From Clostridia bacterium (GTDB lineage: Bacteria; Bacillota; Clostridia; Christensenellales; UBA1242): a DNA stretch of 64,000 nt. Position 1 is the first letter of the stretch; every line of letters begins with the position of its first letter. The stretch lies in assembly GCA_017453125.1 (NCBI GenBank), contig JAFTKS010000012.1, positions 26,632 to 90,631 of the forward strand, given 5' to 3'. The notes under the pieces are model-generated. The model made no database searches. It was not told the origin of the DNA and was given only the letters and a program-made list of their open reading frames with translations. The translations under genes and the position numbers were made by a program. Below, piece after piece: positions 26,501 to 57,485 of the stretch.

Positions 26501-26529
26501 TTGACAAGCTATTAATAATATAGTAAAAT
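26501..26529 (+). promoter_or_regulatory. SigA promoter of the tRNA cluster
   Basis: TTGACA-17-TAAAAT. Confidence 0.8.
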
Positions 26530-27047: not shown

Positions 27048-27132
27048 GGGAAGGTTGCAGAGCGGCCAAATGCAACGGACTGTAAATCCGTCGACTCAGT
27101 CTTCGATGGTTCGAATCCATCCCTTCCCACCA
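27048..27132 (+). tRNA. tRNA-Tyr (GTA)
   Basis: Anticodon loop CTGTAAA, long variable arm, 85 nt, CCA. Confidence 0.97.
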
Positions 27133-27160
27133 AAAAAATCCCTTTACGGGATATTTTTTT

Positions 27161-27285
27161 TGCTCGGGATTGCTTCTGTAAGTTTCACTTACTTGATTGT
27201 TTCACAATCTGAACCACCTTTGGTAGTCGGGTACCCTGCCCGACAAATATGCTTCGCACATTGACGAATCCATCCCTTCCTACCA
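27161..27285 (+). repeat. tRNA-linked multi-hairpin element ending in a 21-nt copy of the tRNA-Tyr 3' end
   Basis: 27265-27285 matches 27112-27132 (20/21); shares TGAACC, GTAGTCGGG-N7-CCCGACAA and CTTCGC with the units after tRNA-Lys. Confidence 0.8.
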
Positions 27286-27503: not shown

Positions 27504-27803
27504 TTAAATAACAAAATCTTCCTCTTGACAATCATTTTCATTATTAATAGTCCTATTAACAACGGGATGATTTTTAACAAAAGTGTTTCTTTTATTTATC
27601 TGAGCAAAAACCTCACTTGTTGTAAACCCACAATCCTCCAACACTACAAAAATCAAAATTTCATTACCATTGAAAGCATTTGTATCAAACAAGAAATCCA
27701 ACGCCTCATTTAAAGCAGACTGCCTATCTTCATACATATTTATTATTTTAAAAATTTTATTTTTTGTTATATGATAATTAATATCTCCGTATGCCATACC
27801 CAC
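27504..27803 (-). CDS. Hypothetical protein inside the tRNA-Tyr mini-island
   Basis: 99-aa ORF with AAGGGG RBS-like sequence. Confidence 0.55.
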   Translation of the reverse strand: MGMAYGDINYHITKNKIFKIINMYEDRQSALNEALDFLFDTNAFNGNEILIFVVLEDCGFTTSEVFAQINKRNTFVKNHPVVNRTINNENDCQEEDFVI

Positions 27804-27945: not shown

Positions 27946-27988
27946 AAATCCGTCGACTCAGTCTTCGATGGTTCGAATCCATCCCTTC
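27946..27988 (+). repeat. att-like 43-bp duplicate of the tRNA-Tyr 3' half
   Basis: Identical to 27084-27126, beginning in the anticodon loop. Confidence 0.9.
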
Positions 27989-33226: not shown

Positions 33227-33998
33227 TGAAAATTTCTCCTGTTTTTTCTATTTGTATATCTGAAAACAAGTCATCTTGACTTACTCTTATCGCTTGCATT
33301 TTGATTAATTCTAGCAAAGCCATAAATGTTGTTATTACCTCTTCTTTTGAGGCAGATTCTAGAAACAACTCGCTAAACTTTAGTCTATCCCTAGATATAA
33401 GTGTATCTTTGATAGATGCTATCTTCTGTTCAACAGTATATGTCTCCTTTACAATTTCTTTGCTTTCTTTGGACTTTTCTACTTTATTAACTTTATGCAT
33501 AATTCCAACAAAAGCATCTAACAACATATCCAATTGCATATCTTTGATAACAATTCTAAATTTATTGGCTTCTTTTTCTGGTGGCTTGTAGAATTTATCG
33601 TTACTTTCCATATCTTTTAATTTCTCATTGACTTCTTTAAACATCTGATATTCTCTGAGTCGTAATTTAATCAGATATTCTTCATCAATTTCATCTTCAA
33701 GCCCTTCATCAAGTTTAGGAAGTAACTTTTTGCTCTTGATTTCAATAAGAATTGCAGCATATTCTATAAACTCACTTGCCACTTCCATATCAACCGTAGA
33801 AATATCTTTCATAACCTCCAAATACTGCTCAGTTAGTTTTGAAAGCTCAACATCTTCTATTTCTAATTTATTTTTCTTAATAAGAGCAAGTAGCAAATCT
33901 AACGGTCCAGAAAAATTTTCCAACTGAAAAGTTAATTTTTCACTGGCAGACTCATCTTGATTATTATTTTCAATTAGTTCTTCCTTTTTTTCTTCCAT
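33210..33998 (-). CDS. scpA: Segregation/condensation protein ScpA
   Basis: FSGPLDLLLALI, EQYL, LIEIKSKKLLP, ITTFMALLELIK. Confidence 0.95.
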   Translation of the reverse strand: MEEKKEELIENNNQDESASEKLTFQLENFSGPLDLLLALIKKNKLEIEDVELSKLTEQYLEVMKDISTVDMEVASEFIEYAAILIEIKSKKLLPKLDEGLEDEIDEEYLIKLRLREYQMFKEVNEKLKDMESNDKFYKPPEKEANKFRIVIKDMQLDMLLDAFVGIMHKVNKVEKSKESKEIVKETYTVEQKIASIKDTLISRDRLKFSELFLESASKEEVITTFMALLELIKMQAIRVSQDDLFSDIQIEKTGEIFNGELI

Positions 33999-34009
33999 TG
34001 TTTTCCCTT

Positions 34010-34657
34010 TTAAAATATTAAATTCCAAAACCATATGATTGGATAAGATATTAGATTTATAAAATTATATAAAATGCCATCAAAAAACACTAATAATAGC
34101 ACCAATACTAAATTGCCATATCTATACATAAATTGTACGTATTTGTTATTATACTTGGTTGTTGCTTCCACTACTTTAAATCCATCTAACGGATATATCG
34201 GTAAAATATTAAAGACAGCTAAACTTAAGTTAATTAAAAATAAAAAGTAACAAAGTTGTTGAACAAAGATGACAAGATAACTATTTGACCGAATAAGAAG
34301 TGTAAGCAAAAACAATCCATAACCCAAAAACGCAAGTATAATATTCATCAAAACACCAGAAATACTAGTCCAAATTGTACCCTTTTTGATATTTCTAAAT
34401 TGAGTCGAATTAATTTTAACAGGATTTGCCCAACCAAACCCAAACAAAGCACAACAGATAATTCCAATTGGGTCTATATGCTTTAATGGATTTAACGTTA
34501 CTCTTCCCTCCATCTTAGGAGTAGAATCACCACATTTGTAAGCTACAAAAGCGTGTGCAAATTCGTGCATACTTAGAGAAAATACAACTACAAGGATATA
34601 CGACAAAGCAACTACAAAAAACTCCATTCCTTGATAATTCTGAATAAAAAATAACAT
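34010..34657 (-). CDS. Site-2 protease (M50) family metalloprotease
   Basis: HEFAH, GRVTLNPLKHID, FNILPIYPLDG. Confidence 0.9.
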   Translation of the reverse strand: MLFFIQNYQGMEFFVVALSYILVVVFSLSMHEFAHAFVAYKCGDSTPKMEGRVTLNPLKHIDPIGIICCALFGFGWANPVKINSTQFRNIKKGTIWTSISGVLMNIILAFLGYGLFLLTLLIRSNSYLVIFVQQLCYFLFLINLSLAVFNILPIYPLDGFKVVEATTKYNNKYVQFMYRYGNLVLVLLLVFFDGILYNFINLISYPIIWFWNLIF

Positions 34658-35524: not shown

Positions 35525-36178
35525 TTATTTCCTTTTTTTGTATTGATTTAAAATAGCAAGATAATTCAAATGTTTATTTGATTTTTCTGATTGTCTATCC
35601 AAAATATTCTGTACTTTTTTGATTTCAAAATCAACAAACTCCTCCAAATCACTTTGATTTGATTCAAAATTTGTCTTTCCAAAATATAGATCAAATTCAG
35701 AAATTTCTTCAACACATTCTTTCTTTACACACTTGAACACATTATAAAATTTCTCTTTTTCCTTGATAACAATATCAAAGATAATAGAAAAACCTTTTTC
35801 TAACATAAATTTTTTCGTTGTAATAATATCTCTCTGTGGAGACAAAATGAAAGAATCTATATTAATGGGAGACGTAGATATTATTTTAATAATTTCTTCA
35901 CCTCCCATACCCGAAATCACACATTCATCAATTTTTTTGTCTGCATATCCCTTTAGACCATCACAACAAATATACTCGCAATTATAACCTTTCGGAGAAA
36001 TTAAGTCAATAGCCTTTCGTAAACTGGGCTCGGAAATATCCGATAAAATCATTGATTCTACCTTTTTATTATCAAAAAGATATTTTGCTAATTTTCCGTG
36101 ATCACAGCCGACATCAGCAACTCTTTTTCCAGAGACTTGACCAGCAATCACAGATAATCTTTTTCCTAGTTTATTCAT
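35525..36178 (-). CDS. trmK: tRNA (adenine22-N1)-methyltransferase
   Basis: [28 protein letters not shown]; downstream of sigA. Confidence 0.9.
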
Positions 36179-37226
36179 AGAAATCCTGCAATTTCTTGCT
36201 ACGATTTGGGTGTCTTAATTTTCTCAAAGCCTTTGCCTCAATCTGTCTAATTCTTTCTCTTGTAACATTAAACTCTTTACCTACTTCTTCAAGAGTTCTA
36301 GCGTGATTATCGTCCAAACCATATCTAAGACGAATAACTTTCTGTTCTCTTGGGGTTAATGTTTCTATAACTTGCAAAAGTTGAGTCTTAAGAATATCTT
36401 GAGCGGTACTATCTGTTGGGGACTTGATAGATTCATCTTCGACAAAGTCGCTTATTTTACTTTCATCTTCTTCACCAACAGGACTTTCCAAAGATACTGG
36501 GTCTTGAGCAATCTTCTGAATCTCAACAACTCTAGCCTCACTTATTCCCATTCTTTCTGCAATCTCTGCATTAGTAGCATCTCTGCCCAATTCTTGCATT
36601 AATTGTTTACTTACACGAGAAAGTCTATGAATTGTTTCTACCATATGTACAGGAATTCTTATAGTTCTTGCTTGGTCAGCAATTGCTCTAGTAATTGATT
36701 GTCTAATCCACCAAGTAGCATATGTAGAGAATCTAAAACCTTTGGTATAATCAAATTTCTCAACGGCCTTTAATAGTCCTAAATTTCCTTCTTGAATCAA
36801 ATCCAAAAATTGCATACTGCTACGATTAACGTACTTTTTTGCAATACTTACAACAAGTTTTAGGTTTCTTTCAGATAATTCTTTCTTGGCATTCATATCC
36901 CCTTCAAGAATCTTCTTTGCTAATTCAACTTCTTGTTCAGAAGTCAAAAGTTGTGATTGTCCAATATCTTTCAAATACATTTTTACAGGATCATCAACTT
37001 TCGCATTCGAAATCAATTCTTTGAGTTCTTCATCTTTGATTGTATTGTCAATGGCTTCTTCAATAGTAATTCCAGCCTCTTCAAGTTGCTCTTTGATTTT
37101 TTCCATTTCTTTAGACGATAGTTCAAAATTAATTAATTTTTCACCTAAATCCTCTTCAGAAATTACATTTCCTGTTTTTCTCGCTTCTTTAATTATTTCC
37201 TGAATTTCTAGTTCTAAATTCTCCAT
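36171..37226 (-). CDS. rpoD: Primary sigma factor SigA/RpoD
   Basis: [67 protein letters not shown]. Confidence 0.98.
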
Positions 37227-56946: not shown

Positions 56947-56975
56947 TTGACAAACTTTTCAAACTATATTATAAT
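56947..56975 (+). promoter_or_regulatory. Consensus SigA promoter of tRNA-Lys
   Basis: TTGACA-17-TATAAT. Confidence 0.9.
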
Positions 56976-56998: not shown

Positions 56999-57074
56999 GC
57001 TTCTGTAGCTCAGTTGGTAGAGCAACTGACTCTTAATCAGTGGGTCCAGGGTTCGAGTCCCCGCAGGAGCACCA
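56999..57074 (+). tRNA. tRNA-Lys (CTT)
   Basis: GCTTCTG/CAGGAGC acceptor stem, anticodon loop CTCTTAA, CCA. Confidence 0.97.
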
Positions 57075-57436
57075 ACTCAAGCACCTTTGGTGCTTTTTTT
57101 GTTTGCACCAGACTGGAACTCACAACATTTTATGTTGCACAACTTCGTTGTTGAACCCTTGACCTTGTCCAGGTGTAGTCGGGCACCCTTCCCGACAATT
57201 GACGTCTCTTCGCTCCTTAATTCGTTTCCCCGCAGGAGCACCAATTCAAGCACCTTTGGTGCTTTTTTGTTTGCACCCGCTTGCACTCACAACATTTTAT
57301 GTTGCACAACTTCGTTGTTGAACCCTTGACCTTGTCCAGGTGTAGTCGGGCACCCTTCCCGACAATTGACGTCTCTTCGCTCCTTAATTCGTTTCCCCGC
57401 AGGAGCACCAACTCAAGCACCTTTGGTGCTTTTTTG
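57075..57436 (+). repeat. Two tandem 169/167-bp units, each ending in the tRNA-Lys 3' end plus a terminator
   Basis: TCCCCGCAGGAGCACCA ends at 57074, 57243 and 57410, each followed by TCAAGCACCTTTGGTGCTTTTTT; unit interiors are near-identical. Confidence 0.95.
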
Positions 57437-57485
57437 TTCAAGAATAAAAAAGAAGCACAAAACAATCATTGTACTTCTTTTTTTA

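Follow-up and report, generated by a model that had tools for sequence, protein, structure and literature searches.

Folded, tRNA-Templated Units behind tRNA and tmRNA Genes in a Genus of Christensenellales

Tail units at two tRNA loci of the window

The window analyzed here is a stretch of 64,000 nt on contig JAFTKS010000012.1 of a Clostridia bacterium (Christensenellales; UBA1242), and coordinates given below without a contig name refer to it. Behind its tRNA-Tyr gene, at 27161-27285, lies an element which is a copy of a large, previously undescribed family of folded units of ~110–170 bases located behind tRNA and transfer-messenger RNA (tmRNA) genes. Two further units are found behind a tRNA-Lys gene of the same window. 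A sequence-only reading of this DNA had claimed that the two loci share the same ordered architecture, and the features described below bear this out. In particular, a 24-nt core, GTAGTCGGG-N7-CCCGACAA, is common to the Tyr copy and both Lys units; the pattern has three matches in the window (27223, 57175, and 57342) and none in 100 shuffles.

The host tRNA-Tyr(GTA) gene (27048..27132, plus strand; detected by ARAGORN, 57.5 bits with the Rfam tRNA model) is the last gene in a six-tRNA operon, Pro-Met-Asp-Phe-Thr-Tyr, whose promoter was located at 26501-26529 by a promoter scan. The operon terminator, ATCCC-TTTAC-GGGAT followed by a T8 run, was placed at 27138..27161 of the plus strand by a terminator scan; it has a stem of only 5 bp with A and T runs on either side, and is thus bidirectional and weak.

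The unit beyond this terminator has all its features on the plus strand. It opens with an arm, B' (GGGATT, 27166..27171), which is the 5' strand of a closing stem, P1, and was recognized from the fold, the Tyr tails of relatives, and a tabulation of antisense arms. As folded in this copy, 27166-27170 (GGGAT, the complement of the tRNA T-stem 3' strand) pairs with 27272-27276 of the element's own tRNA-derived 3' copy and closes the fold, a 5' arm which the earlier reading had overlooked. In the Tyr tails of relatives, B' reads GGGGATGGATT, the complement of tRNA nt 58-68, and the arm of the window copy is short because of a 4-nt deletion relative to these copies. Folding then gives hairpins H1 (GTAAGT-TTC-ACTTAC, 27178..27192) and H2 (GATTGT-TTC-ACAATC, 27195..27209), followed by TGAACC (27210-27215), the complement of GGTTCA of the T-loop/T-stem, and a short stem P4 (ACCA/TGGT, 27213-27224). 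The conserved core P5, identified by pattern search at 27223..27246, consists of G, the trinucleotide GTA, the stem strands GTCGGG and CCCGAC on either side of TACCCTG, and a final AA (together GTAGTCGGGTACCCTGCCCGACAA). The next hairpin in the fold, P6 (ATATGC-TTC-GCACAT(T), 27247..27262), is of a Tyr type that recurs in the tRNA-Tyr tails of seven other genomes. The unit ends with B (27265..27285), which repeats 21 nt of tRNA-Tyr, starting at C56 in the T-loop and running through the CCA end, so that the proposed copy of the host tRNA 3' end from the T-loop is indeed present, with 20 of 21 positions identical to 27112-27132. B is paired with B' in its first part and leaves its last ~9 nt unpaired. 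The fold z-score is −3.7 for the sense strand and −2.7 for the opposite strand, as expected for palindromic DNA.

The second locus is headed by a tRNA-Lys(CTT) gene (56999..57074, plus strand) with its own promoter, a perfect consensus TTGACA-17-TATAAT at 56947-56975. Tail unit 1 (57075..57243, plus strand, 169 bp) scores 70.2 bits with the R2 covariance model. It comprises a terminator (57079-57102; 7-bp stem), a decayed B' arm (about 57105-57121), H1 (57122-57137), H2 (57139-57151), TGAACC (57152-57157), a P4 which includes GTCCAGG, a forward copy of tRNA nt 57045-57051 (57158-57174), the core (57175-57198), P6 (57198-57221), and a tRNA 3' copy with 17 of 17 positions identical (57227-57243). 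Tail unit 2 (57244..57410, plus strand, 167 bp; 69.5 bits with R2) has the same layout, with its core at 57342-57365, and the two units diverge chiefly in the B' region. One terminator hairpin occurs three times at this locus, at 57079, 57248, and 57415, the third copy (57415-57437) lying after unit 2. Both window loci are somewhat eroded: the Tyr arm lacks 4 nt and the Lys arms scarcely pair. An intact P1 is present at the tRNA-Arg(ACG) locus of the same genome (contig C4, 4355-4640).

The protein-coding neighbors of the element at 27161-27285 are the housekeeping spoIIA-sigF, plsC, cmk, rluB, and dac genes. About 660 bp past the tail element, at 27946-27988, lies an exact 43-nt copy of tRNA-Tyr nt 27084-27126, which spans the tRNA from the 3' side of the anticodon stem through the 3' side of the T-stem. 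Between the tail and this fragment sits an orphan open reading frame of 99 amino acids (27504-27803, minus strand) with no Pfam match. The fragment resembles the distal att-type repeat of an islet that has decayed at this tRNA.

Anatomy, hosts, and distribution of the units

The anatomy of a unit was read from ~30 copies of relatives, compared with their host tRNAs. Much of each unit is templated by its host tRNA, in forward and reverse-complement pieces, and the parts are arranged in the order terminator, B', H1, H2, GAAC(C) with P4, P5, P6, and the forward copy of the tRNA 3' end. B' is the reverse complement of the 3' side of the T-loop, the T-stem 3' strand, and part of the acceptor 3' strand, for example TAAGGGAGTC for tRNA-Arg and GTGCACACAGGTGGACTC for a different tRNA-Arg. 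P1 thus pairs a 5' strand that is Watson-Crick complementary to tRNA nt 57 to about 70 with a 3' strand supplied by the copy of the tRNA from C56 to CCA. This forward copy comprises 21 nt from C56 in most units and 17 nt in a rarer class; its ~9 unpaired 3' nt are identical to the tRNA acceptor 3' strand plus NCCA. In GAAC(C) and P4, the T-stem 5' strand and variable region (about nt 44 to 56) are represented first by their complement and then, after a short loop, in forward orientation. H1 and H2 are hairpins of free and unrelated sequence. P5 (GTA-NTCGGG...CCCGAN-AA) and P6 form a sequence-conserved module, which suggests a specific partner.

The boundaries of the templated pieces are sharp across hosts: the antisense arm stops at the complement of nt 57, and GAAC is the complement of nt 53-56. 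TGAACC, which had been proposed as an invariant motif, is present as described. However, it is not an independent motif but is tRNA-derived, since it is the reverse complement of the universal T-loop sequence GGTTC(R). Moreover, B' matches the complement of the tRNA 3' strand and not the tRNA 5' strand (AAGGG and not AGGGG; GCTCCCT and not GCTTCCT). Since B' is thus complementary to the 3' strand, in Watson-Crick fashion, even where the tRNA has a G-U pair, it is either antisense-derived or selected for perfect pairing.

Several loci carry variants of the conserved module. In the genome of the window, contig C7 contains an initiator tRNA missed by ARAGORN followed by 2.3 tail units with an additional hairpin at the apex of P5 (241681-242200), and an elongator tRNA-Met with two units in which the P5 apex is exchanged for an AT-rich insert of ~85 nt (242271-242800). 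These inserts imply that the apex of P5 tolerates insertions while its base, GTAGTC...GACAA, is retained. On contig C16, three units follow tRNA-Gly(GCC) (33773-34300) and two follow tRNA-Leu(TAA) (35926-36290); all have the usual left half and a divergent right-hand module (GTGCTCG...CGAG), and were missed by the covariance model. In a rabbit-gut metagenome-assembled genome (MAG; CANQYX010000011.1, 7229-7700), the tail after tRNA-Ser(CGA) holds two tandem P5-P6 modules, and so the module can duplicate by itself. In addition, two ~140-bp tandem units were observed upstream of tRNA-Ser(GGA) in the window's genome (contig C6, 68663-68962), each starting with the first 18 nt of the tRNA (GCAGAGATGTCAGAGTGG) followed by hairpins. 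They are the 5'-end "head" counterpart of the 3' tail elements.

A covariance model was seeded with one real copy given twice, iterated, and rebuilt from 16 copies; a single copy was used as seed because MAFFT alone mis-registers the variable hairpins. The suggested model search of the genome and related MAGs yielded many further copies. Rather than the three copies first noticed, ~130 units were detected in 22 of 41 genomes of the genus (2–10 per genome), as counts that are not phylogenetically independent and come from MAGs fragmented at these repeats. The model has low sensitivity for divergent variants (Ile, Gly, and Leu-taa types). The window's own genome (G000, 1.35 Mb) has six model-detected copies, and more were found by eye after tRNA-Met, Ile, Gly, and Leu-taa; 12 of its 37 tRNA/tmRNA genes are followed by at least one downstream copy of their own last 15 nt.

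Adjacency to tRNA 3' ends was tabulated for 131 matches re-scored on fetched loci. A tRNA or tmRNA gene lies upstream on the same strand in 104 of them; many of the remaining 27 are at contig ends, and two lie behind an initiator tRNA that ARAGORN missed. Copies with available flank are always on the tRNA strand. The hosts comprise 20 tRNA species and tmRNA, in agreement with the idea that a single family of homologous, structured elements is associated with the T-arm and 3' end of many tRNAs. First units begin 31–50 nt past the CCA, just beyond the terminator, and later units at about 160–460 nt, in arrays of 1–4 tandem units that often end in a partial unit. In those multi-tRNA operons of the window's genome that have units, the units are always behind the last tRNA.

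Of 37 genomes of this Christensenellales genus, 9 had the exact core pattern, as against none of 24 genomes from other genera. When 300 further genomes of the order were searched, with 11 candidates scored per genome, two matches were detected in another family, one after tmRNA and one after tRNA-Leu. Both have the same left half (B'-H1-H2-TGAACC) and a different right-hand module. Across 185,579 species genomes, the strict core was found only in gut MAGs labeled Christensenellales or uncultured Clostridia, from humans, goat, rabbit (the MAG mentioned above), and other animals, apart from a single chance match in a high-GC genome with no tRNA close by. With the exception of the rabbit MAG, the gut MAGs with the core are of the genus studied here. 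The exact core pattern had no match in viral contigs, and in JGI metagenomes it had only three high-GC chance matches with no tRNA close by.

Pairing evidence and possible explanations

That stems differ between copies while pairing is kept, as had been noted from the first three, holds for the whole family. Among 128 distinct copies, 91.4% of cells pair in the standard way in an alignment that was itself fitted to the structure of the model, compared with about 38% (range 36–43%) when the 3' partner is slid by 1–3 columns. All 38 pairs vary on both sides, and none of 500 shuffles reaches the observed values. Pairing amounts to 95.6% in H1, 95.0% in H2, and 98.5% in P5, and the pairs of H1 and H2 all covary. 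RNAfold by itself gives the same multi-branch architecture in most units. In P5, GTA is invariant and unpaired. The fourth base, which had been read as part of a GTAG tetranucleotide at the foot of the hairpin, opens the stem by pairing and covaries with its partner (G-C 66, C-G 34, U-A 23).

Departures from Watson-Crick pairing carry information about the strand that folds. One position of P6 is mainly G-U (GU 45, AU 24, GC 6), and G-U exceeds A-C in both P1 (104 vs. 47) and P6 (53 vs. 29). This P6 position and the G-U excess in P1 and P6 favor folding of the tRNA-sense strand, that is, of an RNA.

By analogy with RtT, an RNA family (Rfam RF00391) of tandem repeats behind E. coli tRNA-Tyr, the element may belong to an RtT-like class of tRNA-operon trailer RNA, an explanation which we favor at about even confidence. 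RNA polymerase would read through the leaky tRNA terminator and transcribe the unit, as is suggested by the E. coli rtT RNA. Since the 3'-end signals for tRNA maturation (B and the terminator) recur after each unit, the unit could be released as a stable small RNA. Such an RNA might display a tRNA-specific, uncharged 3' tail of ~9 nt on a protein-binding scaffold and act as a mimic or decoy for factors which read that tail or the T-arm. Unequal crossing-over between the repeats of B plus terminator would lengthen and shorten the arrays, and gene conversion may keep the arms matched to the adjoining tRNA and swap P5-P6 modules between loci. Expression by read-through has a precedent in E. coli rrn operons, where small RNA genes located between dual terminators are documented to be expressed in this way (PMC8144298).

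The two antisense segments of a unit also allow a more specific hypothesis, in which we place little trust: the unit would be a natural, programmable guide specific to its tRNA. The segments complementary to nt 57 to about 70 and to about nt 44 to 56, between which the H1-H2 module intervenes precisely at the phosphodiester 56/57, would base-pair either with the cognate tRNA in its 3' third or with a single strand of the tRNA gene, while P5-P6 would recruit a T-loop-acting protein. That protein might serve, for example, in cleavage, repair, modification, or recombination at the T-loop, and the cis-paired forward copy could hold the guide closed until use.

Several observations weigh against a trailer RNA of the RtT type, beginning with the fit of the pair counts to the model's own structure mentioned above. 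Every unit has an intrinsic terminator in front, and a promoter scan of the window loci found no promoter-like site in front of units; given these terminators, distal units of an array would rarely be transcribed. Sequencing runs that match the locus are DNA metagenomes only. P1 arms are decayed or shortened in several copies, including both window loci. RF00391 gave no match on either window locus at E ≤ 10 (its gathering threshold is 45 bits), and the helices are arranged in another topology: the RtT fold consists of P1, a helix derived from the T-loop, and two enclosed hairpins, whereas here H1, H2, P4, P5, and P6 stand side by side within P1. Finally, pairing in H1 and H2 is almost entirely of the Watson-Crick type: of about 1450 pairs, 15 are G-U and 17 are A-C. 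When loci of the same tRNA were compared between genomes, H1 and H2 showed 853 compensated double changes versus 43 single-sided ones. Their loops are hardly ever identical between such loci. Wholesale hairpin replacement or a DNA-level correction of palindromes would account for this pattern better than stepwise compensation in an RNA.

The absence of a G-U excess and the near lack of single-sided changes in H1 and H2 would be natural if the units were a DNA-level by-product without specific RNA function, in which tandem duplication of the tRNA 3' end and terminator provided fail-safe terminators for highly transcribed tRNA operons and template-switching in replication kept the palindromes perfect. 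A full terminator copy in each unit, the restriction of units to operon-terminal tRNAs, and the varying number of units among arrays are also consistent with this account. Nevertheless, it leaves unexplained a P5-P6 module common to 20 tRNA species across the genus, the conserved G-U of P6, the exact arm boundaries at nt 56/57, and the persistence of the left-half layout in a second family of the order, and we consider it quite improbable as a whole.

The near-perfect Watson-Crick palindromes of H1 and H2 also speak for a small non-autonomous mobile DNA. In this view, a host-encoded or other enzyme which recognizes the T-arm would place a copy, probably in the form of folded single-stranded DNA, on the 3' side of tRNA and tmRNA genes, with the arms re-templated from the new target at each insertion. 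Eight genomes have the element behind tRNA-Tyr and five do not, and the flanks downstream show no relation between species. For 52 of 81 loci, the P5-P6 module most similar to their own lies at another tRNA species; for instance, the tRNA-Lys module of the window's genome resembles that of a tmRNA locus in another genome (G015) at 90%. Variants of the module tend to cluster by genome, such as a short-P6 variant, AACGGGGC, which occurs at several tRNA loci of one genome (G001; Glu-ctc, Ile, Leu-caa, and Ser-tga in the class tally, and Gln-ctg by eye). Tandem arrays of up to four units, partial end units, and the many copies at contig ends point in the same direction. On the other hand, there are no well-supported copies off tRNA genes and none in viral contigs, and ectopic gene conversion between pre-existing elements can explain the sharing of modules without transposition. 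To our knowledge, no transposition chemistry gives both forward and reverse-complement copies of a target of about 20–30 nt. We therefore regard mobility of this kind as unlikely.

A further point against mobility is that none of the candidate enzymes tracks the element, although co-occurrence with a Y1/RAYT transposase or a tyrosine recombinase had been suggested. The RAYT transposases of repetitive extragenic palindromes (REP), which the sequence-only reading had in mind, are of the Y1 type (PF01797), and Y1 was detected in 6 of the 22 element-bearing genomes, so that 16 of them lack it, and in 3 of the 19 that have no element. The numbers of tyrosine integrases (PF00589) are unrelated to the element, as most genomes have one or two recombinases, and a genome with nine units (G027) has a single one. 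TnpB (PF07282), as required for an omega-RNA, exceeds the cut-off in 1 of 41 genomes of the genus, which is not the genome of the window; a reading of the unit as an omega-RNA scaffold with a 21-nt guide taken from the flank was rejected on this ground. Reverse transcriptases (PF00078), considered for a retron, are scattered over 10 of 41 genomes, with none near either window locus. No multi-copy insertion sequence (IS) or IS-sized repeat was found in the window's genome. This genome contains a single Y1 (IS200/RAYT-type) transposase-like frame (C14, 6001-6357) and, on small contigs, two very long frames of ~1250 amino acids with reverse-transcriptase domains (C2, 1538-2296; C5, 2388-3140); no link between these frames and the tail elements was found.

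The 3' ends of tRNA and tmRNA genes are classical integration sites, and the units might accordingly be relics of integrase-mediated integration at tRNA genes, either attL/attR sites with a displaced tRNA 3' end or remnants resembling a cis-mobilizable element (CIME). The direct repeat of the tRNA 3' end from the T-loop at the end of the element, the 43-nt tRNA-Tyr fragment at 27946-27988, and the non-syntenic flanks downstream of tRNA-Tyr in different species all speak for this origin. However, the same internal module recurs at 20 tRNA species, a reverse-complement arm and covarying hairpins are foreign to att sites, the units measure merely 110–170 bp, and the window loci have housekeeping neighbors and no integrase beside them. 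With integrase counts that do not track the element either, an integrase relic is very improbable and largely refuted here.

Comparison with RtT and other known systems

Rfam scans of both window loci at E ≤ 10 returned only tRNA matches and noise, and a search of the literature on tRNA-tail or T-loop-targeting repeats found nothing described besides RtT. The statement that no Rfam family corresponds to the element thus holds for sequence matches, but it overlooked RtT as an architectural analogue. An origin of the core from 5S rRNA was considered from a similarity (GGUAGU-GGG...CCC) and rejected, as the genome's own 5S rRNA lacks the motif.

Other systems share single aspects of the units. 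Like REP sequences, these form a G+C-rich hairpin after GTA(G) and are multi-copy and strand-specific in structure, but here the fourth base lies in the stem and covaries, and the copies are linked to and co-oriented with tRNA genes. As in genomic islands and the att sites of CIMEs, a direct repeat of the tRNA 3' end from the T-loop bounds the DNA, and tmRNA is also a host; in contrast, the units have one conserved module at many tRNAs, a reverse-complement arm, covarying hairpins, and no cognate integrase. The omega/reRNAs of IS200/IS605 elements and PATEs have a scaffold of ~100–130 nt followed by a 3' segment of ~20 nt identical to the adjacent target DNA, a design close to that of our units, which differ in having the complement of the same "guide" at the 5' end, in their tandem arrangement, and in the near absence of TnpB. 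For the small RNAs rrA, rrB, and rrF of the E. coli rrn dual terminators, the parallel is confined to the proposed mode of expression (PMC8144298).

The closest system is RtT, and the parallel with the 178-bp repeats of E. coli tyrT, which the sequence-only reading had drawn, turned out to be its best lead, since RtT is built on the same closing-stem principle. At tyrT-tyrV, units repeat every 178 bp and end in the last 19 nt of tRNA-Tyr. Each of them holds GGGGAAGGAT, the reverse complement of ATCCTTCCCC in the tail. The RtT model scores 133–138 bits on four E. coli units, and one unit of the locus is annotated as the small RNA gene rttR. In the RtT consensus structure, a closing stem GGGGAAGGAU/AUCCUUCCCC, which is a complement and a copy of tRNA-Tyr, encloses a second T-loop-derived helix and two hairpins, and is followed by an unpaired tail CCACCACCA. 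In both systems, therefore, tandem units lie right behind a tRNA gene on the same strand and end in the tRNA's own 3' end with CCA. In both, tRNA nt ~58-68 (from the 3' side of the T-loop through the T-stem 3' strand to the start of the acceptor strand) are present as a reverse complement and as a forward copy, which pair to form the closing stem; ~9 tRNA-identical nt remain unpaired at the 3' end, and two hairpins and a second helix derived from the tRNA lie inside.

The tyrT repeats of E. coli were sequenced in the late 1970s. The mode of action of RtT/rttR is still described as unknown, and comparison had little material to work on because tyrT-tyrV of E. coli is the only locus we found described. 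The same building principle is now seen in a distant phylum, at 20 tRNA species and tmRNA and in ~130 model-detected copies, and this makes the old RtT puzzle a comparative one, in which the tRNA-templated, free, and constrained parts of a unit can be told apart. In a genome of 1.35 Mb, a third of the tRNA loci have units. If these are RNAs, numerous tRNA operons give a second product that is matched to the tRNA, and if some of them should work as guides, the same logic would explain E. coli RtT. If they are DNA-level or mobile entities, they represent a new way of copying a target sequence in both orientations. On the practical side, the repeats break assemblies at tRNA genes in these MAGs.

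Some differences from RtT are evident in addition to the topology. The forward copy comprises 21 nt from C56 here and 19 nt from A58 in RtT. A terminator precedes each unit here, whereas no hairpin with a T-run was seen by eye in the E. coli units. The hosts are 20 tRNA species and tmRNA in Christensenellales, compared with tRNA-Tyr at the one E. coli locus examined. Because the building principle is shared but sequence, topology, and host range are not, and because the elements fail RF00391, we class them as RtT-like rather than as RtT.

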